DNA of 60,790 nt, filler included, from Sphacelaria rigidula (Eukaryota): assembly GCA_964200075.2 (NCBI GenBank). It is 8 parts of 8 records of this genome, joined end to end, with 100 filler letters (N's around TTAATTAATTAA, not from the genome) between each part and the next. Parts side by side here need not be neighbours in the genome. Positions count along the whole stretch, not along the records: positions 22,837 to 30,348 come from CAXNAA020014570.1; 7 more parts are not named here. One strand, written 5' to 3'. Under the pieces are notes generated by a model. The model did no database searches and was not told where the DNA came from. It worked only from the letters and a program-made list of their open reading frames with translations. Each line of letters begins with the position of its first letter. The first letter of the stretch is position 1. The translations under genes and the position numbers were made by a program. Shown here in pieces: positions 23,601 through 46,100 of the stretch.

Positions 23601-23849
23601 ACAAAATAAAATAAACAAGGCATGCTGAATAAACTATTATGATAATGAGATACAATGTACTAAGTACATGGAGATAAAGCACAGAAATGACAAGATGCAT
23701 GACCTCACCCGCCTGAGTTATACATTCATGGTTGTTGGGCGAGTCTCAAGTTCGCGTGCCTTATCCTAGCTGAGCCATTATTAGACGACCGGATTGTGGT
23801 AGTGAAGTATTGCTGCAGTTGTACAGCACATAAGTTTGACAGCGAAAGG

Positions 23850-25130
23850 AGGGTGTGCGTTCACCTGTATCGTGTCGCAATATTGTTGGCCTTCCTTCTT
23901 GTTTAGAATATCGGTCAGCGGGGCGACTATAATGCTACGCTTCTGGACAACGTCTAAAGTACCCGGCGAGTCTAGAAAATAACGTCGTTCTTCGAGTGTG
24001 TGTGGACGTGACATCTTAGTAATTGTGTCGAGTTTGGACGGGGCTGGTTGTATGTCGGTATTATCGATCAATAGGCTAAGGAACTTCTCAGATCTTGCAG
24101 TAAAGATGCATTTGGCGAAGTTCACCGAAAATAAAATCGTGTTGTCGACAAACGACGCGGGAAAAAGTTGAGTTGCGAGCAGCACCTCAGTCAAGAAGCT
24201 TGTGAATTTCTCCTGTGATCATGCGGCCTTTTTCTGATTGGAGGCTGCGTTGTTTTGTAGCAAAGGGTGTGCACGCGGTACAATAACCAACAAGACAATT
24301 GGAACTCGTACTTCGCCCCCCCATGGGGAATCAGCGACCACATCGGCGAAATAAGTGTCTGAAAACTATGTGTAGGACCTGTAAGAAGCGTCAAACACAA
24401 GATATATAGTCGCGCAGTCCACTTGCATGGTACGCTGGGCATGAAGGGTAAAACGGTGAAATATAGAAACTGCGTAAGTGTGCGTACTGAAGTAATAACA
24501 AGGCAATGCACGGGAAGATCAGTAGTCGCATGATATCAAAAACCAAGTTTAAAGCAACTGAACAAAGTGATATCCAACTTCTATACAGGGTGCGTCAAGA
24601 AGTCAACCTGGTGAATAATGAAGCATACAATCGATTACCGGTGTGGGATAGAATGGGGATCATGTTCAGTTACACCAAGGTGATGACCCTGCTACCAGAA
24701 TGCTATAAAAAGGTGCACGGAAATAGCTAAAACAAGCCAAATTGATGACACTCCACGATGGAACATACCGGCATTGGCAAACCGTTCTGTGCTTCCTGCG
24801 TGTCCTCCCCGACGCAATCACGTTCAGCGCCGGTTCCCTCATCGGGATGCGACACACCCAGGACAAGAATGTAGGTCGAACAAGGGCGGAAGTAATAGAG
24901 GGCACGGTTAGTATACGTTGGAAGTCTCGGGGTACATGAAAACATGGGTCGGTTTCAGACGACCTGACGCAGATCGAAATGTCCTGCGCTGGGCGGTAAA
25001 TTCGACGTTGCGGACCAGACTGATGAAACGAGTAGAAGCGGAATCCTGCTCAAGCATGATGAGTACAGGCCGCGCAACAGACAGGGTCATGCGGATCGCC
25101 TACACCCGCACGGTCAAAAGAAAACCATCA
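23850..25130 (-). pseudogene. Degenerate Ty3/gypsy protease/RT remnants
   Basis: FSVNFAKCIF...KFL...IQPAPSKLDTITKMSRPHTLEERRYFL matches the gypsy RT C-terminus and connection region. The upstream part is heavily decayed. Confidence 0.6.
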
Positions 25131-25774
25131 TGAGCGCAAACACAATACAAAAATTAACAGAAAATGAGATGAAAATGGCGCAGCTTTAATGAGCAAGACG
25201 CGAAAATTATAAAAAGCTCAAAACACAATCGGGTGGCTCAAAAGACAGTTAAGGTAGACACGACACCCGGAGATACAGACAATATGGGGATGTAAAATTA
25301 ATGGAAACAAACAAGACCGAAATAAATTGGAAGCTTTACCGCACGTGCATTTCGCAAATCCCCATGGTCACAATAAAAATGCAACCCCGGAAACAAAATA
25401 TATACTGATCATGGTGGATTGATTGTCCCAGTTCAATATACAACAAAAATACCGAAAACAAATGGAGAATGCCTGGAGCACGATCGTTGCTGGTTAGGTA
25501 AAGCAATGATATCATAGGTGGCCAGGTGCAGGTCAGGAGAAGTTGATACAAGGCAGGTGATAATGACAGAAACCGTGCGTTCAAATTAGAGCAAGGTAGA
25601 AAATGATGGGAGCATAAGAGCGGAAAATACGCGTGAACATGACAACATGCGATGCGATGGCAAGCAAGAAAATCGAGCAAGAAAAGTACAGTCGACAGTA
25701 GGCGGCCGAAGCAAAAACAACAACACCACAAGCGGGATAAAACAGCAAACCAGGGTAGCGAAAAGCACGGTGAA

Positions 25775-25925
25775 AACAGCAGCAGCAGCAGCAGATAACA
25801 ACAACAACAACAACGATAACAACAACGATAACAACGGTAACAACAGCAGCAACAGCGCAGCCGCGCGGCGAGCAGCAGCAGCAGCACACAGCAGCGGCGC
25901 GGCAGTGACAAACAACAGCACAGAA
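25775..25925. repeat. (CAG)n/(AAC)n low-complexity tract
   Basis: Mixed trinucleotide runs, which account for the long shadow ORFs here. Confidence 0.85.
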
Positions 25926-26741
25926 CAATAGCACAGCCGCGCGGCGAAGACACTACAGCAACATGGATAGACACCACGGCTATGTGCAACAACAGCCCCG
26001 AGAAGCCCGGAAGAGTAGCCGTCTCCATCAGTCTGAGGTAAAATCATGAGTCCGCCGAGATGAAAAATTGTAGTACCTTCTGGTTCGGATGCTCGTTCGT
26101 GTTCTCGTGCGACTGTATTTTTCATTCAATCATTTCGGCTACGTCATACAACTTTTGCTTTGGAGGTAGGCAACGTTGTGATGAGCTCGTTCAAGATGAA
26201 AAATTGTAGCGCATGCTGATGAACTCGTGTTGATGAGTCGCCCGTGCAGAAAGCTGTTGGTGGCGCTATTGTTTTGGGTTGTGTGTAACAAAGTGCAACG
26301 CGGCGGGAAAAACGACGCAACGCGAGACACCGACGGAACAAAGCAGCCTACCTAGTTCTATGCTGCTTTTACTGTTCAGCGTACTTTGCCCTGTTGAGAC
26401 AATCCGAAAAGAGAGTGCAGGGAACCGCAAGCTGCACACCATGGTGCACTGTTTTTGCTCTTGAAACTCATGAGTGACATACAGCTGTGAAGTAGTGCGC
26501 TCTGTCTGTTTCATACTCATTAGAAAAAAGGCTATGTTGCAGTTTGGATTTACTTCACAACTTGAGAAGCACATTATTTACCATATATTAATGAAGTAAC
26601 GTGTCGCCACGCGAAAAAAATCAAACCTCCCCATCGTAAACAGAATTGTGTTGGGAACATGCAAATTGTGTTGGAAGCATGCCACGGTTGACTCTACACA
26701 AGCACGCATTGGACACCATGTCACGGTTCGATACTTACCGT

Positions 26742-26816
26742 GACTAATTAATATAGTGGTCAGTACACCACATTGTGACTGTGGAAACCCGAGTTCGATT
26801 CTCGGATTGGTCACCA
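26742..26816 (+). tRNA. tRNA-His(GUG) copy with encoded 3' CCA (probably retro-copied / pseudo-tRNA)
   Basis: Acceptor GACTAAT/ATTGGTC, D-loop AGTGGTCA, anticodon arm CCACA-TTGTGAC-TGTGG (GTG at 26775-26777), T-arm CCGAG-TTCGATT-CTCGG, discriminator A 26813, CCA 26814-26816. Has an A10:C25 mismatch and A37. Confidence 0.85.
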
Positions 26817-27274
26817 TGTCACGGTTCGATACTCACAGTCAAGGGGTGTAAGGTGCCAGTTCGTGGGCACCTGGGCCGTCGAGCCCAAACACAATCAAGT
26901 GTATCGGTCCGTTGAGCTCGACTTTCCTGAGTGTAAGTCAGCCGACAGTTTGTACCGTCGGGCGGCATACCCTTGAGCAGCACAGACGACAGAACAACAT
27001 CTGTTGCATGGAAGTCAGGCTTGCACTATGAGAAGACCAGAGATCCCTCTGATATCGCAGGCCGTGATGGTGTGAATGCTTCTTGTATCATCGACGAACA
27101 GAGGCTAATAGCTGCCGTGCTTGGTGAGATGCCTTTCCTAAAACGTTGTCCGCACATGAGGGCACACAGCCAAATTGTTTGACACAATGTAGTATGACCC
27201 ATCGGATACCAAGCATAACAAAGTATGACACATGGAACCTAGTCGGCTGGAAAGTGACCAATAAATCTGTAACA
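26817..27274 (-). mobile_element. Ty3/gypsy LTR (3' LTR of the adjacent integrase fragment)
   Basis: Minus strand TGTTACAG...CCGTGACA, immediately followed by TGG (PBS signature) and preceded by a weak PPT, AAAGGGTGTC. The 27274 boundary is less certain. Confidence 0.6.
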
Positions 27275-27399
27275 GACACCCTTTGAAGCAGAGTTCAAAA
27301 CTCACGAAAAATCTTCTGCGGCGTTTGGTGTTTGGATGACCAAACACACGTAGAAAATACATGAATTAGAAGGCAAGGTTCTAACCGCTAGCCGGCGTG

Positions 27400-28580
27400 A
27401 AAGTTTATTTCTACATAACCTCCAAAAGTTTCATGGAACGGGGGGGCGATGTGGGAACCACCACATAAAATGAACAAATTCCCGCAAGTGTCTGTCAAGG
27501 AACCACCTTTTCACACATTTCCCTGAAGGTCGCGAGGGAGATCAAGATAAAGCAGATTGTCGCCAACAGGTTTTCCATCAGGGGATGATGGCGATGGCCC
27601 GGCTCCCACGATCTTAAATTGTCCTGTCCAGTTGAGCGATAATTTATTGAGTCTTCAAGACTGTCTCGTTGGCGGCTATATCGGCGCCTTGGCGGATGGT
27701 CGACAATCTGTTGTCAACCAAGACCCAATCGCCAACTCCCACGCGGGCCGTTTGGACATCAAGTTGTAGAGAGCAGTATTGAACCTCTCAAGGCGCGAGG
27801 CGTTGATAGCGTGTTGTTCATGCACAAGAGTGAAGGTCTGTTGCTCGAACACTGTGATGGGCAAGCGGGGGTAGTGTCCGAGGTGCAGTTCGTTCGGAGA
27901 AACGTTGGTAGCGGCGTTGACTGAGTGGTTGAAAGACAGCATGACATGTGAAAGATGGAGATCCAGATCGTTTTGACAATTGTTGATAACCACAGGGAGC
28001 ATCTGAGCCGTGGTGTGTTCAAGTCTTTGAGTGCCACCATTACCATTTGGGTGGTAAGCGCTCTTGCGTATGCCCAAGAGCCAATAGAGTTTGTCCGAGA
28101 GGTCTGGGCAGAATTGCTGACCATTGTCGGAGAGGAGCCGTTTCGGACAGCCATAGTGATTAATGTGTTCGTGAACTAGGGTGTCAGCTGTGCCTGCGGA
28201 TATGAAGTCTCCAGCGGTTTACTGCGTACATGGGCGCATGGCGGCTGATTCGGTCGGTGAGGGGTAAAATGTAGATGTTGCCACGATTGGTCGTTGGTGA
28301 AGGACCGAAATAGTCAAACGGTACAAGGTGACCAGGGGTGTTGGGAGGTTCCGTAGAGATGACGGGCCAACGTATTGTCCGCCGTGAGGTTTTGCAGGCT
28401 TGGCACTTGAATCATCGCCGAATCCAAAAGCGGGTGGCGACTTCCATGCCGATCCATCAGTAGAAATGTTCAAGTAGCGCCAAGGTGCGCGTGACACCAA
28501 GGTGGCATAACAAGTCAGTGTGGCAGCCTTTCATGACCCACGGGTGCATCAAAAATGGAAAATATATGCGGGTGGGCTCG
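27400..28580 (-). pseudogene. Ty3/gypsy integrase (HHCC finger plus core), frameshifted
   Basis: GCHTDLLCHLGVTRTL...FY*WIGM...KCQACK, FDYFGP, LTDRISRH, SAYHPNGNGG, FNHSVNAATNVSPNELHLGHYPRLP. Confidence 0.9.
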
Positions 28581-28582
28581 TC

Positions 28583-30348
28583 TGTTGGAATATTCAATGT
28601 CAGTCATTGGTAACGACTACTATCTATCGTAGGTTATCGTAAACAAGATTGAAACCATTTGAGTGTTCCAGAAATAGTATGTGGTATATTCTGCGGTACA
28701 TTATGTTTCCAGAACAAGTTGTCGGGGGATTAATCGGGAGTTATCGGTTGCAATATCCCGCGAGTGTTCTAGACGTGTGGAAGTTCTGGAAGTTCATTAG
28801 CTGATCGGTAGGCTCGCACACTTGGTGCTCGCCCACCTGATCACTCCTCTACTACTTCTCTCCTCATACTCTTCTCTTCTATGGGTTAGAGTCTTCGGCC
28901 ACATAAGCGCCAAGTTTAACATCTCCATTCTCAAGTCAAGTGCCTTAACCGTCACTCTCTGCACCTCTGCATAAACTGCAGAAGACAGTTGCCACATCGG
29001 CGCACCATCAAGAGTGAAGCCATATTCCTTCAGGTTATGAGCCTCGAGCTTCATCAATAAGCAGAGCAAGGAGCCACAGCGTCGTCAGCGATCAACACGT
29101 TCTCAAGAGGATCGGCACCCCTCTTCCAAGCAGAAGACGGATATCGCACCAACGGGAACTTCAAGTCCCTTCTCGTCAATCAAATTGAAGTTCTGTGGAG
29201 GTCCATCAAGATCAGGCGCGTCGGCATCATCCACGTCGCCAAGGCATCACTACAGCAGTTCAACGGAGTCAGCTCAAGACTACATCTCCACGCTCCTCTC
29301 GCTAGTGAGCATCTTCGGTCATCAACAAGATTGACAATCGACCGCCTCGCATCGGCAAGTTCCGAGCTATTCCTCCGCATTTTTGTTGCGTGAAAGTTTA
29401 TCCGAGAAAAGAGAGATATGTCGTCATCAGCTACGACACTCAGCTACGTCGTCTTCAGCTACGACATCATCACTTCGGCAGGTTCTTCTAGCAACACTAG
29501 CCAAAAGGCACGGACTTCGGATCCATCAAGCCTATCAACTGGCATTCGCAGCCAACACCCGTAGGTAACTCAAACCTGGGTGCATCATCATCTTCTGTTG
29601 AGGGATTGTCAGTTTCTCTTGGAATTTTCAACGTCATCGTACGACTGCTGTACGAGTACACGTCATCTACACGGACGGCAACAGCAACAGCAACAGCAAC
29701 AGTAGCAGGATCACCGCACCATGAGGGAGCCATTGACAAATGCTGCTGCGGCGGACGCAGTGGATAAGTTCCACTGCGTCTCGCTCGCAACGGTTTTTTC
29801 ACCACCATAGGTATCTTTTTTCACTCCGCATGTCAAGAAGGTCTGCACAAGTGTTTGATGTCTCATACACCCCCCTCCCAACTGGCGTCTCGCACGCTCT
29901 TATAGTCGCTAAGCACCCAGAGGGTCGCTCACATACATGTCGGGTAAAATCAACGATGAAGAACACCCCCCAAGTTCAAGACGGATATATCTGTTGTTTT
30001 CGCCGCCCCACCGCCCTTGCTGGCATGTGTGTGACAGAGAACAGTAGTAGCGGTGACGGGAACATTGCCCTATTTTTCAACGACATGTTTGTCATCGCAC
30101 AGAGGCGCGTCCTCTCCAAAAAGAGAGGCAGAGAGGAATCGATCTTCGCATTGGTGAGCTCGACAGGCAAGAAGAGACGGAATCTCTCCGCACCTCGATG
30201 TTCTGGAACATGGAAAACTGGGTACATACTGATAGTATCGATGATGTCGGTCTCTCGAGCGATTGATAAGCGAGGGCACACAAAGGACACGGGCGAGGAG
30301 CTTCCTCTCTATCGTCGCTTCTCTCTCTGGTGATATCGTCATCGACAC
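28583..30348 (+). mobile_element. Nested Ty1/copia-type element, 5' part (LTR 28583-29032, PBS 29033-29043, decayed leader/gag)
   Basis: TGTTGGAATAT ... ATATTCCTTCA terminal inverted repeat, followed directly by GGTTATGAGCC. It begins where the gypsy pol homology stops and is truncated by the contig end. Confidence 0.7.
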
Positions 30349-31404
30349 NNNNNNNNNNNNNNNNNNNNNNNNNNNNNNNNNNNNNNNNNNNNTTAATTAA
30401 TTAANNNNNNNNNNNNNNNNNNNNNNNNNNNNNNNNNNNNNNNNNNNNCCATACTGCCTGACACCGTTTGGAACCAAAAACAAGCGCAACGTAGGTGTGT
30501 GGAAGGATGTCTGGCACACTTATGAGCCTCTTTTTTCGTGCAACCAAGTACCCCCCCCGCTATCGTAGGATGACTCATAAAAATTAAAATTCGTGCTCAT
30601 TAAGCTTTAATTCTTTGCATAACTTCTGAGCCAAGTAAGGCTAAGTTATATTTATGGGTTTCGGCAATACATTATACATCGCTCTTCCACGACAAGAACA
30701 AGACCAGACCAATACCACAATGCTCTGCAATGCTTGCTCAATCAAGCTTAACGTATCTATCTGCCCCGTCAATTTGCGTCAAATGTGCGTCGCATCTTGT
30801 GGTGGCAGATAGGGCCAACAATCAGGAGCGCTGCCTCATCCAAGTCTCCTCAAAATGGCTATTTATTGAGTGTTTCTTAATGTGAAAAAAACAAAAAATT
30901 TACGACCGCCAGAAGGGGGAGGGGGGAGGGAGGGGTGTACTCATGATCATGCATGTCATAGTCATAAGACCAATTGGGGAGGAGGAGGGGGGTGTACATA
31001 GAGTCTCGGAGGTTTTTTGGGGCACTCCTGCGTCATCTAAGACTTTCAGCTCCTCAATGTGAGGGGTGACATTTCCGACAATTTTTCACATTTTCGAAGG
31101 AAAAACAAGCCAAATAATGCAATTTTTGTCGCCTCCGGCAGCACTCGCGCGGGACCCCCTCACCAGCCGCGGGGGGGCGTTGGCGGCTCGCGGCGGCTGC
31201 GACGATTAACCGGAAAACAATCGATGTACTGGCCGCGCCAGCGGCCAGTTTAAAATTAAGTGGCCAGAGCAGCCAGTTCACAGCCCTATCAAATGCGTAT
31301 CTGACACATTGGAAAGGCTATTTTTCCTTCCGGTGTCATGCGGTAGGTATACGTGGCTATCAATCATACAAGAAGCTTCTCCTCACTTGTTTGCAGATTG
31401 ATTG

Positions 31405-31736
31405 TGTCAGAGAATGAGGCTGTGAAGCCATGCTCTTCAAAGCTTCGTATGGTATTGACTATATATATATGTAGTGTTGGAATCGCAGGTACCGGTCACG
31501 AAGGTTTGGTCTGATGTGGGGGCGTATAATGTGGGATAGCAGCTGTTATACATAAAATACTCTTCTCTTTGACCGTGTACCCTGGTGGGTTGTTTGTATT
31601 GTCTTGCCCACAAGTGGCACCTTGAACACTATCTTCTGTCTACCCTCCGAAGCAGCCTGTCTGCTTGCTTGGCTTAACCGCCATTGCGCCAACTCTAGCG
31701 ACCACGACGAAGGGGTTCCGAGTGAATCCTCCAACA
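31405..31736 (+). repeat. 5' LTR of the copia element (332 bp)
   Basis: TGTCAGAGAATGAGGC...CCTCCAACA; direct repeat of 36470-36799. Confidence 0.93.
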
Positions 31737-32473
31737 GGTTTATTAAGCCTCGATTCGTGTCGGTGCTGACGGAGCGGACGTTGGACCTTGGAAAGAAGGA
31801 AGGAAGGGCAGCAGCAAAAGGACAGATCTTTGCTGGAAAACAACGTGAGTTGCGTCATAGTAAGACGGCACTGTGTGTGTCTGGCACTACAACAGTGCGT
31901 TGCGTTACGATTGAGGACGGCACTCACTTTGTGCGCACCTGGCATCATCGCAGTACGGAGATATCGCTGCGGTACGAAGTGATAATTGTTGAAAAAGCGG
32001 GACAACCGCAGGTGATCAGGAGCAGCTTTGCAGCTGTGACGACACGCATCTACTCTCGACTGGCGCTACAGCAGGGTACCACAACCTGAACCGAGTAGGG
32101 CGTGTGATCTATTCTTTGAAGAGACGACAACAGCGTGCGCAGGCAGTACCACGGCTGACCTGCGGAAACAGTAACAGTCAGTAGTCGGATCCTTCTTCGG
32201 AAACAATTTTTTCCGCACCTACTACAGAAATGCACAACTATGCGCAGTGTTTGTAGCATCTTGTACACTGACTGTCTATCTACACCTGTCAGGCTGCCCA
32301 AGATTAGCGGCGTTCTGGGGGGGACATATCTGGGTTCGATCCATCTGCATTCTTTTTTTTCGTGACCTCCCTCGACAAGTCAAGCGGCGGTGATCAAGGC
32401 CGATTGTGTGGTGGTATCGGAACACGTTATAGTACACTCGTTACGTTGGAGCAAAGCGACGAGGAGGATTATC

Positions 32474-36326: not shown

Positions 36327-36469
36327 GTACAGCCTGGTTGTAGCTTTGAGTTCTTATTTCGTCCATGAGTGCCGGAACGGTTGTACTGATGTGGGTGTTT
36401 GAAACTAGTACGTATTTGCATTGAGGAGGAGCGTGAAGGGTTAAGAGTGATACTTGCGTTGAGAGGGAG

Positions 36470-36799
36470 TATTAGAAAATGAGGCTGTGAAGCCATGCTC
36501 TTCAAAGCTTCGTATGGTGTTGACCTTGTATATGTAGTGTTGGGATCGCAGGTACCGGTCACGAAAGTTTGGTCTGATGTGGGGGCGTATAATGTGGGAT
36601 AGCAGTTGTTATACATAAAATACTCTTCTCTTTGACCGTGTACCCTGGTGGGTTGTTTGTATTGTCTTGCCCACAAGTGGCACCTTGAACACTATCTTCT
36701 GTCTACCCTCCGAAGCAGCCTGTCTGCTTGCTTGGCTTAACCGCCATTGCGCCAACTCTAGCGACCACGACGAAGGGGTTCCGAGTGAATCCTCCAACA
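36470..36799 (+). repeat. 3' LTR of the copia element (330 bp)
   Basis: TATTAGAAAATGAGGC...CCTCCAACA following the PPT. Confidence 0.93.
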
Positions 36800-38190
36800 G
36801 CTTGATCCTCATTTGTTGCTCCCTCGCATGAGATTGATCACCGATATCATGCTGAAACGGTCCATCATGTCACACTGAACGCTTTTTCATTATTGCATGT
36901 AATCCTAAATGTCAATATGATGTGACCATGTCACCACACTCCGCCGAGTACTTTGATGTTGCCCACTTACTTGCTGTATCCTTCCTTCCCAGGTGGCTAT
37001 CCCTCAGGCGCCGTTCGCTCTGCTTCCCGCACTGCCTGTGCTGCAGCGATCGACTCTATTCACGCTGTGGTTTCTGTGCTGTACTTCTGCACTACCGTGG
37101 TGCAGTGCATGCACTTTACTATTAATATTATGGAAGTTGCTCTCTACCCGCATCGTAGCCTCGCAACAATGCACAGCGTCTGAGCGACCAGCGGTGATCC
37201 AAATGCTACTGTAATAGTCGTTTGCCATTTACGGTACGTCGCAGTAACCTCGAATTTTGTTGGCCCAAGAGTCGGTTAAAAACATATTTCGGGACACCCA
37301 GGCCCCACGATTGAAAATTCGAGTTTGTGAGGGGGGCGGGGGGGAACATCGAGCTTGCTTTCTCCTAGATTATTGCCGAGGCATTGGCGGATGCGATCAG
37401 CTACCGTGTACAGAGATCCTTGGCATGGAGACCGCCGAGATGATGGACACACCGCCCCTCCAAGCTCATCACCTACCATGATTACATTGATGGGATCATG
37501 TTCCGTATCGTGTGCCGCCTAGACTCCCCACCACTAGTCCGGGAAAAATTTAGCGAAGGGTGAGATCATGTTGCTACTTTGGCCACAGGCTGTCGCTGAC
37601 GTGCGCTCGTGTATCGTACATAGATGTGTGTGAGCGTTGCTGGCATTCGAGGTCATCGGGACAGGGCGGGCAATAAGGAGCAGAAGCAAATATACGAGCC
37701 CCGCAAAGCCCGCCAGACTTGTCGGTTTTGGAAGTGTTTGTACATATCAATATCGTTCAACAATGTCAACAAAAAAATCACGAAAATTTTCGATAAATTG
37801 CCCTCCGGGAGGGGACACTTTCTACGATAGCCCCCCTCCCCCCCCCCAAAGTTCAGCCTGGTCCGGCGAAAACCCGGCGTGCTCCGTCCCGGCTTTGTAG
37901 GGGCGGACCCCCGATGGGGTTGGCGTCTGTTGGCGATGACACTGTAAAACACGCCACTCNNNNNNNNNNNNNNNNNNNNNNNNNNNNNNNNNNNNNNNNN
38001 NNNTTAATTAATTAANNNNNNNNNNNNNNNNNNNNNNNNNNNNNNNNNNNNNNNNNNNNCGGAAGGGATACGTGGTCAGTGGTCAAACGATTAAGGCAAG
38101 CAACAAATGCGTCCCCCCCCCCCCCCCCACCCCCCCGAAACCGAACAGAACAAGTTCCCCAGCTGCATGCATGCATCTTCACTCTCTCAC

Positions 38191-39201: not shown

Positions 39202-42200
39202 AGGGGTGTACTCATGAGAATGCATGCCATAGTCATAAGACCATTGACCTCGCTGTGTGGGAGGGGGATCACGCGACCCAGAGAAATCTAGGCGCAATTC
39301 TTGCGCTACATACTTCACGTGCAACAACATAAGAGAATAAAACAACGAGAGTCAGCGGGATATCAGATAGGCATGTACTTATCGTACTGCACCGCGCAAC
39401 AGATGGGTTCGGTTTGATCTCTTGAGTGACCGCGGGTTTTGTCACGATGAAGAACGTATGACAACAAAAACAACGGGAAAACACACTCACACGCACGCAT
39501 ATGCGACCCAAGTACACCATGGGTACACCGCGAAAAAAAAGGTACTTTTCTGTTAGTCACTTTTGTCACTCGTCACCTCTACATGTCACCTCACCTCTAT
39601 CAACACCTCATCAAATAGCCCGGTGCCTAATGCTTGGGCTCCCTTCCTGTCCTCTAGCGTCGCCAGAACGTTCTCTCGATCCTCCCACGAAATGTTCACC
39701 TGTGTACCCCCCGCGACAACAACAGAAGCAGCAGCGGCAGCAGCAGCAACAACAACGATAACAACAACGGCGACGACGACGACGAGGTCAAGAGTTTTTG
39801 ATGGAGATCGGAGAGGAGCGGGGAGGGGGGGGGGGGGGGGGTACTCCTGACGGTGGAGGCCCTAGTCACACGGGCGGTGGCCGCCCATCCCNNNNNNNNN
39901 NGGTGGGGGAGGGGCGGTGGGAGGGGGCGGGGGGGGGCAGGGTAGATGTACTCATGATCATGCATGCCATAGTCACACGACCATTGACCTCGCATTCCTG
40001 CAAAGCCGGGACGGAAGCACGCCGGGTTGTCGCCGGACCAGTCTCGCAGTCAATCTCCAAGCGCGAAGCGCCGTGACGTGTTCGGCGAGTCGCATGAAGG
40101 GTGAACTGCATCCTGCTAAGATTTTTCGGCCCGAAGCGTACTGCTTATCTTGCGTTTCAACGACAGCCTCCAATGAGTTGCTTTATTTTCTGGTATCACC
40201 ATTTCAACACTACGTAGTATCATCATCTCCTCCGCGCAGGGGTTGAGTTTCTCCCACCCCGCACAATATGGTCTAGCTCGACCACCATCATGGTTACCGC
40301 AAAAAAAAACGCAAGCGCTCGACAAAAAACGCTTTCACCTGGCTGCCTAGCTTACGCAATGAGTGGCGTGTTTTACAGCGTCATATGACCAACCGACGTC
40401 AACCCCATTAGGGGATCCGTCCCTACAAGGTCAGGACGGAGCACGCCGAGTTTTCGCCGGACCAGACTATCGCCACTTCCAGAGACACGCCACTTACTGG
40501 GTAAGAGGAGTGATGGGGGGGGGGGGGGGGGGGAGGGGGGGGTCGGCGAGACCCCCAGAAAGGGGGGCGCCGGGGGCGGGCATACTTGGGGTGGGTTTGT
40601 TTTGGGGGGNNNNNNNNNNCCGTTTTAGCAGCGGGCCGGTAGTGGGGGGGGTGAGGGGTGGGTGGGGGGGGGGGGGGGCGGGGGACGCGATGTGTCGATG
40701 AGACCACAGAATAGAGGGCTACGAGGACGGCATTACATGGGAATGCTTGCTGTTGCGGTGACCGCAGAGTCGGGTTAGGTTGCTGTGGAGCAAGTCCTGG
40801 TATGATTTGAGGGTGCTTGTCGAGAATGAGGGAACACACGCTATGATCATGATAGTGTGTTGTCATCTCCTCTATTCTGGACGCCGGTCTATACAACTCT
40901 CGGTATATGTAGGCGTACCAGCCGGGGTCACACAGGAGGGGAGGCCAACACAGAAGGCTCTACTCCTTCCTTCTGCGGCGCTTGCCCAAATATTTATTTG
41001 TCGCGAGAAGGGTTCAGCAGTCCCTTTCCCTCATCGACCGTGAAGTCGAATTTTGCGTACCCACGACATAGTCGCTCTCCACTGTTGGGCACTGGGTGAG
41101 AAAAAATCCCAGATCGTATGAATGCAACGAGATTCGAACCCACGACCCAACCGTCGGAAGGTCTCGAGGTTACCAACTGACCCATAGGGGCGACCGGTCT
41201 GACGACAGTATTCATGAATCATTTCGAGGGCGACTGCAGCTTGTTGTGGTGTAGTCTGTAGTCATATTTGCTGCGTCTCCCCACGCGGAGTCCACTGTAA
41301 GCACAGTCATATTTCCTTCACGCTGACCCTCTACCCTCGACCTCGAGACGACCCGTAAGTCGAAGGGTATCTTTCGGGTACAGTATCAAGTATATGGTGG
41401 AAACATTTGTCCGAGACACGATGCTGCCGGTTGGACAGAGACGTCAAATCGAATTACATGTGTGTTATCGTCCCCTCCATCTATTCTCGACGCCGGTCTA
41501 CACCTTTCGGTATATGTGGGCAATTCAGCTGGGGTCACACAGGAGGAAGGAAGGCCAACACACAGGAGTTTTTTTTCTTATTTTCTAGTACTCTACCTTC
41601 CTTTTGCTGTACGTGCTTGCCTTTTTGTTTTGTTTTTATCGCGAGAGGGGTTCGGCAGTCCTTTTCCCTCGTCCACCGTTAATTCGATTTTTTTCACATG
41701 TACACAAAAAACGTGAGCGATGGACTGTTGGGGGCAGAGAAGTGAAGTACAATCATGGAAGATCGTAGCCAAACGTTCAGCAAAGCATCTTCGATCGGAA
41801 TCGCAACGCTTTCAAGGTTTCCGGTTACCACGACTCGTGACGGTTTCTGTTTGATCCTCAACTGTGGGAATCGAGAGGCATGAGTACCCGACACTACTTC
41901 CGAGAAAGTGAACTGCAATCCACAACCAATTTCGAATGAAATGCGGGCTCACCGGTCTTCCGGGGTCTAACAAGCGTACAGCCCCTGGTTCTCACTCTTT
42001 GATATTTTCACTCGACCGAACAGATCCGGATCGTTCGAATGAAAAAAAAAAGAAGTAATGTCCACAGTTTTTCAAGTTTTTCGATATTCTTTGCGCTACA
42101 GCCGAAAACAACGTATTTTTGGGGTCATATGCGGTACAAACATGTGGCGCGCTGTTTCACGTGCCTGGGGTGCGGGTACCTGGGTTTTGTTGTTGTTGTT

Positions 42201-43044: not shown

Positions 43045-43165
43045 TCCGTCTCGAAAGGGATACGTGGTCACGGGCAAATGACTGAGGCAAGCAACAAATG
43101 AGTATCCCCCCCCCCCTCCCCTCCCCACGAAAAATAGAACACAACAGAACAGCACAAGGACAATC
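43045..43165 (+). repeat. Short dispersed repeat (also 38060-38150 and 45671-45750)
   Basis: AAGGGATrCGTGGTCA...AGGCAAGCAACAAATG followed by a poly-C tract, in three places. Two contigs begin within it. Confidence 0.8.
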
Positions 43166-46100
43166 TCAACCCAATGGAAGGGGTATCTACATCTACATAT
43201 GTAAGTATACAGTAGTGGGCGCCTGAACTACTTTTTGTTCAGAACGGCTTTTTTCTCGTGACTAGTCTTCGATAGAACTTGAAAGTGCAAGCGTCGGTAG
43301 ATTTCGGTGAAATAAACAGATCACTTTTCCCCCACCCAGTGCTCAAATTGGTGTTGATTGTTTTTTTTGGGTAATACGAGTACATACCCAGTTTATCAGG
43401 AGGGTGTTATTGAGCATGAAACACAGTTTTTTTCTGGCCTAGTGCAGTGAGTAGGTATAATAAAAAATTAAAACTGTACATTTCTTCACAAAAACGATCG
43501 GGACAGGCTCGATCGACCGAAACACCGAAGAGTCAAGAAGTGGGCTCAAACGTGTCAGGACCCCCGATGACCGATCAGCCCGTAAGTCTCTCAATATTCA
43601 GTGCATATTATTACTTTTTTTCATGTGGAGCGGATACAAGCATCTTCAGATCCCCAATGTGATGAGCGATGGCAAGCGAAACAGCGTGAGGAAATCGCCA
43701 AATACGAAGAAGTTACAAAAAATGAACAGTTCAGGCGCCCACTACTAGATGAAAGAAAAAAGCAATTCAACAACCGAGCGTACAGAGAGTAGTTCTGTAA
43801 CAGGGCTGTAGCACTGTAGGTCGCCCTCCAGTATATCGTTGACCGAAGAGTAATGCCGTGCGATGTTTCCCCCCCAAACCAGCCCCAAAAAATCTGTCAC
43901 GAAGACTATGGCCGTACAGCCCAGGATAGCTGGTTTCAGACTCCTTCAAGAGCCTCAAATGGGCGATGTTGGCCAAAACGACCTCAAGAACTAGAGTTCC
44001 CAGCTGCTCGATGTGCTCGGCTTTTGTCATTTTGACTCGCATGTGAATCTCGCCTCTTCAAATCAGGCACTTTTCTGGAGGGGGGGAAAAGGGGGGGAGA
44101 GGGGGGCTACCGCGGCATACTCCAAACTACCTTTTGCCCTTTGAGCATTCGATCTCTCTGCGATGCTATTTTCACGCAGATTCACTCTCTCTATTCATGT
44201 GTCGTGCATCGTGATTACTGTACACCACACCACCGTGATTACGGTACAGTGCAAAACACCCAAAGTCGTTACGGTACGGTGCGGTACAACAGTTCAAGTG
44301 TCGCATCACCAAATCTACGATTTCTCAGGCCTGATTGCTCGCAAGAGGAAAAAAAAAAAAACATGACCGCGGTCGATCAAAAACAAAGTATCTCCGCATT
44401 TATTTGTCTCGCACTTTTGAACGTGCTTCAGGTGCGCGCGTTACGTGGGGTGCAGTGCAACATCGAAAATACAACTCCCGCGGGATTAATCCGCACCGTA
44501 CAAACCCTATTACCGCAAAAAAAAAAAAGTAATTTCATACGACCCAATCACTACTTGGCAGAGTCAGTTGGCACGGTGATGGAAGCTCCGGCGGAGGAAC
44601 CTCCCGGTGAGGCGCATCAAAGACGACTTGTTGATCCTTGGGCCCTGTCCTCGCACATGAGTTTTCGATACAAAAAGTGCGGTGGAAAACAAAAATCGCG
44701 ATCTGGTACGTCGTGATTTCAACCATCTTCGAAACCTTCGACGATGGTTGAAATCACGCCCTGTCAGATCAGGATTATTGTTTCCCACCGCACATTTTCG
44801 ATCGAAAACTCATGTGCCAAGACAGGCCGTTAGAGCGCAAGGGTAGTCCATCTGCATCATGCATACTATTTTTTCAGTGAAATTAGTGCCGACTCAACAG
44901 ACGACCCGTAATAATGCTTTCTACAATACTTAGAGTAAGAGGATACGGTTGAGAGTGAAATGCGGTCAGTTTGTGAATGAATCGTTTCAGTTCCGAAATG
45001 CCCCTTCACGAGGCGACCTAACGTTTCGGTCGTGTATCTATGGTTGCTCTTTTCGAACAAACTAACGCCAACCCTAACCCTAACCTGGACTCAAGGCGTA
45101 CGAGATCCCCAGGCAAGGGGGGGGGGGTGCATAGGTTCCCCTACAGTAGGCGAAGTGTGCGTTGGGAGACCGCAAATCGACGCCGCAGGCGCCGATTTCG
45201 ACAAAAGCACGTTCTGGACGAGCTGAGTCCACTGCTCATCTGCCCCAAACCATTATTTTTTCTCAGAACTTGCTGAAGTCTAAAATCAAGTGGTGATGTT
45301 GTCAACCATACATGTACGACCAAGGCTTCATGGTAGGTTTATAATAGTGGACAAAACGACGAAGCCAGTCGCATGTGCATGCATGGCATACGATAGACCA
45401 CCACACCCTTACTGCCACCGCGGGATAAACGAAGTTGATTCCTCGAGACAACGGACTCTTATCGAAGAATTGGAGTGGAGGTAACGAAAACATGATGGGG
45501 AGCAGGGGGCAAAGGAGAGGGTGAACTAACGATCTTCCACGCCCTAGTCAGAAAAGTGGACGAGTGGGGGNNNNNNNNNNNNNNNNNNNNNNNNNNNNNN
45601 NNNNNNNNNNNNNNTTAATTAATTAANNNNNNNNNNNNNNNNNNNNNNNNNNNNNNNNNNNNNNNNNNNNCCGTCTCGAAAGGGATGCGTGGTCAATGGT
45701 CACACGATCAAGGCAAGCAACAAATGATTGCGCCCTCCCCCCCCTTCCCCCCAACAAACTAGCCCAAAATTGTCATGAAGATGGTCATAACGCCTGATGT
45801 TTGGTTTCAGGCTGCATGAAACGTCTTGTATGGAAAATATAGCGAAATCGAACCCAATCGTGGGAATTCCCAGCTGCTCATTAGAGAGTTTCGGAAGATA
45901 TTTTTTCTCATCAAAGCGTCAGAGTGCAGAGTGGAAGCGCTGAGACTTCAGAGTGGACGCTGAAACGTTCATAGAGGAAGCTGATGTGGCATGGCTTGTT
46001 GTGGAAGCCTTTTCTTCGCAGCGATTGGCCGCAGGTTTTGCCGCCAAATATGCGATCGACCAGCGATGAGTCCGAAAATGCAGAAGTCTACATAGCATTG

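Follow-up and report, generated by a model that had tools for sequence, protein, structure and literature searches.

We found a complete, CCA-tailed copy of tRNA-His joined in antisense to the end of a long terminal repeat (LTR) in the genome of Sphacelaria rigidula. The copy has the exact ends of the tRNA, its 3′ end lies at the position of the primer-binding site (PBS), and behind it the end of U5 and the PBS occur a second time. We consider it probable (roughly 60%) that this locus is the fossil of an aberrant reverse transcription, in which the plus strand copied the whole mature tRNA-His primer and then a second U5-PBS-leader template. In that case the element would belong to a Ty3/gypsy-type family of high copy number whose primer is tRNA-His. 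All positions given below refer to the window, the whole stretch of 60,790 nucleotides that was analysed.

A CCA-tailed tRNA-His copy adjoins the end of an LTR

ARAGORN predicted a single tRNA in the 60.8-kb window, a 75-nt tRNA-His with anticodon GTG on the plus strand (26742-26816), which includes the terminal CCA encoded in the DNA at 26814-26816. The Rfam tRNA model (RF00005; gathering score 29 bits) aligned with 26742-26813 over its full length, positions 1-71 of 71, with a score of 58.9 bits and an E-value of 3.4e-10 for the window. No second tRNA-like match was found in the window by the Rfam search, even at E-values up to 5. An earlier note on this DNA had described a complete 75-nt CCA-tailed tRNA-His, which ARAGORN recovered in full. 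In the Rfam alignment, the conserved positions of the cloverleaf are present and the only non-standard pair is A10-C25. Position 37 is also an A, and these are the two positions at which the note had placed deviations. The base preceding nucleotide 1 of the tRNA (26741) is a T, meaning that the copy has no G-1, again in agreement with the note. The minimum-energy fold of the copy contained the acceptor, anticodon and T arms of the cloverleaf and was no better than that of shuffled sequences (z −0.78; 36 of 200 shuffles were at least as stable). Exact-pattern searches with a 23-26-mer of the T arm and acceptor gave no match in metagenome, viral or genome contigs.

On the minus strand, the tRNA copy follows directly on an LTR of ~699 bp (26817-27515, TGTG...GACA). 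One end of this LTR is defined by the terminal CA adjoining the tRNA-complementary sequence, the other by the loss of homology at 27515, where homology ends in 42 contigs of the public sequencing run X4 (loose ends). The LTR starts 160 nt past the end of an open reading frame with similarity to integrases, and self-BLAST revealed no second LTR copy in the window. This reading frame, a 180-aa open stretch on the minus strand (27676-28218), appears to be a remnant of the integrase catalytic core. Among solved structures it matched best to residues 1217-1332 of the Ty3 Gag-Pol polyprotein (7q5b), at a weak E-value of 3.2e-4, followed by retroviral integrases; it had no Pfam match at E≤0.1 and no match to longer proteins at E≤0.001. 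Also on this strand, at 28388-28543, stop codons interrupt a putative relic of the zinc-binding (H2C2) domain of integrase. It was matched by Pfam PF17921 (Integrase_H2C2) at a weak E-value of 8.1e-6, over residues 602-653 of the reading frame that begins at 30346, in which stops were read as X for the Pfam search. Single ORFs around the locus had no Pfam match at E≤0.1. The integrase gene is decayed, with stops and frameshifts. The order characteristic of gypsy elements is present, with the H2C2 zinc domain and the core last in pol and adjoining the LTR, both by weak matches. The upstream element appears to be a decayed Ty3/gypsy-type element, with integrase remnants nearest to Ty3. Since the LTR lies 3′ of integrase and 5′ of a PBS, it is common to two tandem internal regions.

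Resident nuclear tRNA genes are not expected to carry the CCA in the DNA, and a T-run is expected close by. Here the CCA is present in the DNA, whereas the plus-strand T4 run nearest to the 3′ side of the copy is located at 27508-27511, 692 nt away. Moreover, the LTR adjoins the CCA at zero spacing and in the orientation of a PBS, and the 5′ flank of the tRNA consists of the LTR-end repeat and a PBS. Although LTR elements are described as well known to target tRNA genes (PMC5006619), we regard it as exceedingly improbable that the element simply inserted beside a resident nuclear tRNA-His gene by targeting, as Ty3 or Dictyostelium elements do.

The LTR end and the PBS are duplicated around the tRNA copy

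Read along the minus strand, the integrase remnant is followed by the ~700-bp block ending in CCGTGACA and then by TGGTGACCAAT, which continues as the antisense of the whole tRNA up to nucleotide 1. The tRNA copy is thus, on this strand, an antisense primer copy. It begins at the first base past the terminal CA of the LTR, where the PBS must lie, so that its first 11 nt (TGGTGACCAAT, 26816→26806) sit at the PBS position. Behind the antisense tRNA follow 23 nt that repeat the end of the ~700-bp block, and then TGGTGTCCAATGCGTG. This second U5 end (26719-26741, minus strand) is identical to 26817-26839 at 21 of 23 positions and directly abuts nucleotide 1 of the tRNA, with no clear microhomology at the junction. 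The neighbour of the insert on its 3′ side (minus strand) is therefore U5 end and PBS, not U3.

The second, ordinary PBS, TGGTGTCCAATGCGTG (26703-26718, minus strand), was found by a pattern search allowing three mismatches and is complementary to the 3′ end of tRNA-His at 13 of its 16 nt, including 10 of the first 11. Both PBS sequences lie directly 3′ of ...CCGTGACA on the minus strand, TGGTGACCAAT matching the tRNA-His 3′ end at 11/11 and TGGTGTCCAAT at 10/11 positions. Aligned in register, 26708-26741 and 26806-26839 are identical at 31 of 34 positions. The mismatches are at 26713, 26736 and 26739, and the longest perfect run is 22 nt (26714-26735); in the self-BLAST of the window the repeat appeared as 37 nt at 89%. 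The mismatch at 26713, inside the PBS, would fit a first PBS copied from the tRNA and a second one copied from the RNA genome. The 28-mer that the note had placed at 26708-26735 and 26806-26833 is found at both places, and the 18-mer CGTGACATGGTGNCCAAT occurs twice in the window, both times in the copies of the LTR-end/PBS repeat. A 27-mer of the LTR-end/PBS had no exact-pattern match in metagenome, genome or viral contigs. U5 (26834-26841) and the anticodon arm (26776-26783) share an identical 8-nt stretch, which we attribute to chance.

Retroposed small RNAs are known to include CCA-tailed copies of tRNAs and to have direct repeats at their flanks, and the insert is directly flanked by a repeat. 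The copy might accordingly be a tRNA retro-pseudogene that arose through a different reverse transcriptase, such as that of a LINE, or a capture at the DNA level inside the U5/PBS of an ordinary element, with the 34-nt repeat as a long target-site duplication. However, the inserted piece would then comprise only nucleotides 1-64 of the tRNA, and the duplicated PBS must supply the 3′ 11 nt in perfect register. Only pairing of the tRNA with the PBS would account for such a register, and this leads back to a primer. There is also no poly(A) or LINE-type tail, and we consider a retro-pseudogene or a DNA-level capture very improbable.

The leader behind the second PBS (26606-26702, minus strand) was delimited by depth bins, a loose end and joints in contigs. 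Apparently only its first ~15-20 nt adjoining the PBS are of high copy, with a loose end at 26687 in the contigs. Two paralogous contigs break at 26605/26606, with the joints 26605→26744 and 26605→26805. Beyond the second PBS, Pfam gave no match on the minus strand between 26700 and 22840. The only lead is an ORF at 23781-24218 (minus strand), ~2.5 kb downstream of the second PBS, which may be a remnant of the RT/RNase H connection of a downstream element. In an ESM Atlas feature search its top match carries PF17919 (RT_RNaseH_2) at a score of 0.86, below the 0.9 level, and nine of the ten best named Atlas clusters belong to the same family or clan as this match; the ORF had neither a Pfam match nor a PDB sequence match. 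The minus-strand order given in the earlier note thus held from the integrase through the LTR end, the antisense tRNA and the 23-nt U5 repeat to the second PBS. The 'internal gypsy sequence' that should follow was not directly recognisable, the weak RT_RNaseH-like lead being its sole support.

The junction is of very high copy in public sequencing runs

Between 1,538 and 1,655 contigs per run (X1, X2 and X4), and 539 in X5, matched the 2.2 kb around the locus. The LTR-end/PBS junction is of very high copy: the summed contig depth at 26709 was 9,484 in X1, 33,391 in X2 and 25,958 in X4, compared to a depth of 10-38 for single-locus contigs. At the second PBS (26703-26718) it reached 5.8-33 thousand in the same three runs. 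Ordinary LTR-end/PBS junctions without the tRNA were found in contigs of all these runs (X1, X2, X4 and X5), and family copies lacking the insert showed up as the joints 26706→26807/26812 and 26740→26850. Among the contigs listed, none spans 26700-26840 without differences, and among the perfect-identity pieces listed none covers 26606-26871; contigs break at repeats.

The missing perfect-identity pieces over 26606-26871, the extreme repetitiveness of the family and the direct repeats at the flanks, which are typical of template-switch chimeras, would all suit an artefact in which the tRNA-His came to lie between two copies of the junction through read chimerism or an error of the assembly graph at the short repeat. 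A random chimera would, however, not place both junctions exactly at the mature tRNA ends and the insert in the orientation and position of the primer. In addition, the left junction (26741|26742) has no repeat that could mislead an assembler, and the three differences among the 34 positions of the repeat argue against a simple duplication error. An assembly or library artefact is therefore improbable.

The tRNA-bearing structure itself occurs once in the window, as an unusual, decayed locus. The joint 26605→26744, seen in one contig per run (X1, X2 and X4) at single-copy depth (10-37) and with a side of 29-44 letters, hints at a second tRNA-bearing locus. It places a stretch resembling the tRNA body beside another copy of the low-copy repeat 26200-26605, which would fit a propagated variant better than a one-off event. 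The tRNA could then be a module borne by the element, created by one read-through and now inherited by a subfamily, since priming at the first PBS retains everything downstream. It may serve as a Pol III-transcribed gene, either for primer supply or as a tRNA-U5 antisense proto-SINE, or as a 75-nt super-PBS. The nearly intact cloverleaf, with one non-standard stem pair against three differences in the 34 nt of the flanking repeat, would agree with this, as would the plus-strand order of tRNA-CCA and antisense U5, the arrangement predicted by the strong-stop model of SINE origin.

In bin 26718-26791 the summed depth equalled that of neighbouring bins (4.0k in X1, 10.1k in X2 and 10.6k in X4). 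However, this is about what the 24 nt of LTR end in this bin alone would give, as 24/74 of the depth at 26709 amounts to ~3.1k, 10.8k and 8.4k, respectively. Likewise, a decay of ~4-9% predicts 3-7 changes in 75 nt, and the stem mismatch together with A37 does not fall clearly below this. Family copies that lack the insert exist, the window contains no other tRNA copy, and there is no Pol III terminator within 692 nt. Finally, for an 84-aa open stretch running across the LTR end, the tRNA and the second PBS (26578-26832, minus strand), which served as a proxy for further copies, no similar predicted protein was found. We thus consider a propagated module unlikely.

The earlier note had left the choice between a primer copied end to end and a tRNA gene borne by the element. 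Reverse transcription of a mature tRNA is upheld by the exact ends, the antisense orientation and the PBS position, and the event may have been a one-off or may have been propagated. The note's suggestion that the deviating bases might be a footprint of RT misincorporation is matched at least as well by simple decay of the sequence. Both A10 and A37 would be G-to-A changes. Differences of this class are the commonest between copies of the family, with G>A at 103-124 places in the contigs of each run, and the two copies of the flanking repeat also differ at 3 of 34 positions.

A model for read-through of the whole primer

Plus-strand strong-stop DNA normally comprises U3-R-U5, for which minus-strand DNA is the template, and beyond it no more than a copy of the 3′ part of the attached primer tRNA; this short copy of the tRNA 3′ end regenerates the PBS. 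In our model, the plus strand would have run past the DNA-RNA junction to nucleotide 1 of the mature CCA-tailed tRNA-His, yielding the LTR plus 75 nt of antisense tRNA. The growing 3′ end would then have moved, without obvious homology, to a second minus-sense template, the 3′ end of which lay 23 nt inside U5. Synthesis on this template would have proceeded through the U5 end, the PBS and the leader and onward into the internal region. The final product, LTR - antisense tRNA - 23-nt U5 repeat - PBS, may have been integrated, for which it would be competent as it keeps normal LTR termini, or may have been recombined into a tandem array.

An origin from mature tRNA by reverse transcription is suggested by the ends of the insert, which are those of the mature tRNA (nucleotide 1 and CCA). 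That this tRNA was the primer is supported by the antisense orientation of the insert relative to the element and from the complement of CCA adjoining the terminal CA of the LTR, which is the PBS position. The next 34 nt (23 of U5 and 11 of PBS) repeat the junction at 31/34, as would be expected of synthesis resumed on a second U5-PBS template. We infer the order of events and the template switch, the latter only being postulated because there is no clear microhomology between nucleotide 1 of the tRNA and the U5 repeat. The copy is presumably that of the host's own primer species and is probably functionless now. A hairpin in which the read-through strand primes on its own PBS predicts ACCATGTCACGG... 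after the tRNA end; this is absent, and we rejected it.

Some features fit the model less well. Mature tRNA-His of eukaryotes usually bears G-1, and the lack of this base in the copy weighs against read-through. Furthermore, integrase directly precedes the LTR, unlike in a plain 5′-LTR read-through product, so that either multimeric cDNA or a second event is needed. The plus strand could have begun upstream of the LTR, as in multimeric cDNA, or a later LTR-LTR recombination could have made a tandem of two elements with one common LTR.

Textbook reverse transcription relies on the plus strand halting within the primer tRNA. If our reading is correct, a chromosomal copy of the whole primer, CCA included, would show that read-through occurs in vivo, that a template switch can rescue it into integration-competent DNA, and that antisense U5 thereby becomes joined to a Pol III-type gene. 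It would bear on how strict the m1A58 stop is outside retroviruses, and on the long-standing, unproven proposal that tRNA-derived SINEs arose from molecules of primer plus strong-stop DNA. With the tRNA-His genes of the host for comparison, the copy could moreover reveal, as a natural record, modified bases that were misread by the RT of the element. We hold it to be quite doubtful that, in the gypsy-type family of this alga, complete copying of the primer gives integration-competent, heritable elements whose tRNA-CCA-antisense-U5 fusion keeps working Pol III boxes. Were this so, the locus and the hinted second one would be a living intermediate of the strong-stop SINE model, or an element supplying its own primer.

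Comparison with known systems

No report of an integrated full-length primer tRNA was found in the literature searched. Tandem LTR elements with one common LTR (LTR-internal-LTR-internal) are known from yeast Ty1 and from plants. The Sphacelaria locus has the same succession of integrase, LTR, PBS and another internal region, whereas tandem arrays have an ordinary PBS at the junction and lack the extra tRNA and U5 repeat. The Cassandra TRIM elements, reported by Kalendar and colleagues in 2008, are said to carry a 5S rRNA gene in their LTRs, and are likewise LTR retroelements holding a Pol III-type small RNA gene. In Cassandra, however, the 5S gene is in both LTRs, in sense, and kept across many copies and species, in contrast to the one antisense tRNA outside the LTR, at the PBS.

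For the origin of tRNA-derived SINEs, Ohshima, Okada and colleagues reportedly put forward the strong-stop DNA model in 1993. As in this model, the plus strand reads tRNA - CCA - antisense U5, that is, a primer tRNA joined to minus-strand DNA. Unlike tRNA-derived SINEs, the locus gives no sign of a short defined unit, a LINE-type tail, amplification or, as far as its sequence indicates, Pol III transcription, and its antisense LTR extends for ~700 nt and into integrase.

Colicelli and Goff reportedly cloned, in 1986, a retroviral circle with tRNA sequence between the LTRs. In such imperfect 2-LTR circles, as here, primer-derived sequence stays on the U5 end of the LTR because primer removal or the stop failed. 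The circles are, however, unintegrated and have the order U5-insert-U3, while the present insert is genomic and followed by U5 end, PBS and leader. For PopRice of rice, imperfect 2-LTR circle junctions are described that keep PBS or tRNA-derived sequence (PMC5338827).

A further close process is primer read-through by retroviral RTs (HIV-1 and M-MLV), which in vitro is described to pass m1A58 and m5Um54 of the primer if the modification is missing (PMC8599865). There too, plus-strand synthesis does not halt after the usual 18 nt of tRNA, and U5 is directly extended by additional antisense tRNA sequence. That report treats read-through as a dead end, its in-vitro product being stated as unable to complete synthesis and expected not to integrate (PMC8599865). 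In contrast to those products, the Sphacelaria copy reaches nucleotide 1 of the tRNA and is chromosomal, and behind it lie a 23-nt U5 repeat and a second PBS.

A complete tRNA-His copy between duplicated LTR ends

ARAGORN identified a tRNA-His with anticodon GTG at 26742-26816 on the plus strand as the sole tRNA in the 60,790-base window, the terminal CCA being part of the match. Positions 26742-26813 aligned with the entire Rfam tRNA model (positions 1-71 of 71) with 58.9 bits (gathering score 29; window E-value 3.4e-10), and no further tRNA-like stretch emerged when the full window was scanned against Rfam at a permissive threshold. In the Rfam alignment, A10 opposite C25 is the sole non-standard pair. 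The minimum-energy fold contains the acceptor, anticodon and T arms, and its stability is not above that of shuffled sequences (z -0.78).

Read on the minus strand, a block of ~700 bp (the candidate LTR) ending in ...GAGTATCGAACCGTGACA is followed by the exact 75-nt antisense of the tRNA, from CCA to nucleotide 1 (TGGTGACCAAT...TTAATTAGTC), a 23-nt repeat of the LTR-block end (ACGGTAAGTATCGAACCGTGACA) and a second, ordinary PBS (PBS2, 26703-26718; TGGTGTCCAATGCGTG). When 26708-26741 and 26806-26839 are compared in register, 31 of the 34 positions are identical, including a perfect 22-nt run, with mismatches at 26713, 26736 and 26739; self-BLAST reported this repeat as 37 nt at 89%. A junction 18-mer has only two sites within the window, namely both repeat copies. 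The earlier note had described a full CCA-tailed tRNA-His, duplicated junctions and this minus-strand order. Given the ARAGORN and Rfam matches and the in-register repeat, that description is correct wherever it could be checked. Its further claim that G-1 is absent also holds, since base 26741, directly before tRNA nucleotide 1, is T. This may reflect a lineage without G-1 use, an immature tRNA or a template switch one base early.

The presence of the whole tRNA-His at the LTR end is real and precise. As both junctions coincide with the ends of a mature tRNA, an artefact of assembly or library preparation is improbable. In the leader after PBS2 (26644-26700), a tandem duplication of ~20 nt was observed (AATTGTGTTGGGAACATGC / AATTGTGTTGGAAGCATGC on the plus strand).

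The surrounding element

On the minus strand, the LTR block is preceded by a decayed integrase, with an H2C2 zinc domain recognized at about 28388-28543 (Pfam PF17921, E 8.1e-6, stops read as X). A 180-aa core stretch (27676-28218, minus strand) had the Ty3 Gag-Pol polyprotein as its best solved-structure match (7q5b, E 3.2e-4), with retroviral integrases ranking next. Pfam gave no match for this core stretch alone. The block between integrase and tRNA starts with TGTG at 27515 and ends with GACA at 26817, and homology is lost exactly at 27515 in 42 contigs of the public sequencing run X4; we read it as a candidate LTR. Self-BLAST found no partner copy of it in the window. Downstream of PBS2, no Pfam domains were detected on the minus strand down to 22840. 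A 145-aa stretch at 23781-24218 on this strand had no PDB match, and its Atlas search pointed to RT_RNaseH_2 as a lead only (score 0.86). The arrangement looks like two tandem internal regions with one common LTR, of which the downstream region is weakly supported. Where the gag of the downstream element would be expected, a low-complexity stretch (25336-26125) has long L, C and A runs in its minus-strand frames and N, A and S in a plus-strand frame.

Direct repeats at 31404-31743 and 36469-36806 (278 nt at 98% plus 65 nt at 89%, spaced about 5,065 bp apart) bracket plus-strand ORFs with zf-CCHC, SH3_retrovirus and RVT_2 domains and form with them a fairly young Ty1/copia-type element adjoining the gypsy remnant. 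A 61-nt repeat (family D5) with a long C-rich tract at its end is present in three copies (38081-38141, 43072-43132 and 45698-45758). Pairs of 44-N runs recur each 7,610-7,612 bases across 7513-53280, and two 10-N runs are located at 39892 and 40610. These look like masking or scaffolding, not biology, and none overlaps the tRNA-His locus.

Proposed read-through of the primer tRNA

The insert has exactly the ends of a mature tRNA, is antisense, begins with the base that directly follows U5, and includes an encoded CCA. These four features suggest that a mature tRNA paired to a PBS was reverse-transcribed; a gene or random capture would not yield them combined. The encoded CCA, the lack of a nearby terminator and the 5′ flank speak against a resident tRNA gene as the target of the element, which is extremely improbable. 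A LINE-type retro-copy of a tRNA with a long target duplication is very improbable, since the PBS would have to supply the rest of the tRNA exactly in register.

In the read-through model, the simplest route, plus-strand synthesis would pass from U5 over the DNA-RNA junction and copy all 75 nt of the primer. The strand would then switch end-to-end to a minus-sense template with its 3′ end 23 nt inside U5, and copy U5 end, PBS and leader. Since an integrase immediately precedes the LTR, multimeric cDNA or later LTR-LTR recombination would be needed as well. Retroviral reverse transcriptases are described to read through primer tRNA in vitro if it lacks m1A58 and m5Um54 (PMC8599865). The model accounts for the duplicated segment, which corresponds to U5 end plus PBS, and for the junction at tRNA nucleotide 1, where no clear microhomology was found. 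In reverse transcription, the tRNA is reported to be the source of the plus-strand PBS and the RNA genome that of the minus-strand PBS (PMC7472051). PBS1, the first 11 nt of the antisense tRNA (26816-26806), complements the tRNA perfectly and PBS2 has one mismatch, as would follow if PBS1 came from the tRNA and PBS2 from the RNA genome. The product would keep normal LTR ends and could therefore integrate. A10 and A37 would each be a G-to-A change, the commonest difference class between copies of the family, with 103-124 places in each run. Plain decay, also seen in the flanking repeat with its 3 differences in 34 positions, fits them as well as the misincorporation opposite methylated G suggested in the earlier note. 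By its anatomy, the read-through origin is well supported; for read-through and template switch as a whole we estimate a probability of about 0.62.

Copies of the family in public sequencing runs

Five public runs from two studies, labelled organism A or 'algae metagenome' and with no RNA run listed, contain part of 26300-27700. Contigs of runs X1, X2, X4 and X5 were aligned to 26200-28400 at a likeness of at least 80%, which placed 1,538, 1,605, 1,655 and 539 contigs, respectively. Summed depth at PBS2 (26709) was 9,484, 33,391, 25,958 and 1,981, and contigs matching single stretches perfectly had depths of about 10-38 (X1, X2 and X4). The element family is very abundant. Ordinary junctions without the tRNA were seen as joints 26706 to 26812 (X1), 26706 to 26807 (X2) and 26740 to 26850 (X4 and X5). 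The bin 26718-26791, covering most of the tRNA body, had summed depths of 3,977, 10,068, 10,612 and 402, of which the 24 nt of LTR end within it could arithmetically alone yield ~3.1k, 10.8k, 8.4k and 0.6k. No full-identity contig piece spanning the insert was found among the matches listed. Exact patterns from the LTR-end/PBS junction and from the 3′ part of the tRNA had no match in metagenome, prokaryote-genome or viral contigs.

In each of X1, X2 and X4, one contig (depth 10-37, short side 29-44 letters) joins 26605 to 26744, setting a tRNA-body-like stretch beside a further copy of the repeat 26200-26605, itself of low copy number; one more contig per run links 26605 with 26805, with an ordinary LTR-PBS beside this repeat. 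Taken together, the two joints are a hint, on thin evidence, that a second, differently built locus carries the tRNA. The first joint and the near-intact cloverleaf would suit a propagated or functional tRNA module borne by the element, identical in origin to the read-through product and different in fate. However, its terminator is missing (the first T4 run lies 692 nt downstream), ordinary copies exist and modest decay is expected anyway; such a module is unlikely.

Beyond 27515, the U3 start, the 42 X4 contigs have the plus-strand consensus TTGGCGACACCATG... with an agreement of only 0.48. It resembles the complement of a PBS running into the terminus of another, different LTR; other copies of the family would then have an LTR-PBS-LTR order. 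A 9-mer of similar sequence, TGGCGACAC, is found at 26609-26601 on the minus strand. Within the LTR, summed contig depth reaches 17,000-45,000 at 27162-27309 (X1, X2 and X4) and only 74-133 in the adjoining bin 27088-27161, with loose contig ends concentrated at 27184. A short unit of very high copy number thus seems to be embedded in the LTR.

Comparison with known systems

The strong-stop model of SINE origin postulates the order tRNA-CCA-antisense-U5, and the same order is found on the plus strand at the tRNA-His locus; of the features that define a tRNA-derived SINE, none was observed there. The locus works in like manner to plus-strand strong-stop read-through. Colicelli and Goff reportedly found a primer-derived insert at an imperfect 2-LTR circle junction in 1986. 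For PopRice, such an insert is likewise described in imperfect 2-LTR circle junctions (PMC5338827). The tRNA-His insert is similar, but unlike those at circle junctions it is chromosomal and full length to nucleotide 1, and it is followed by the U5 repeat and PBS, whereas the circle insert is followed by U3. Literature searches in a collection lacking most subscription journals turned up no integrated LTR element described as containing an entire primer tRNA, a weak sign of novelty. The tRNA-His locus is best read as a variant, probably new, of a known kind of replication error.
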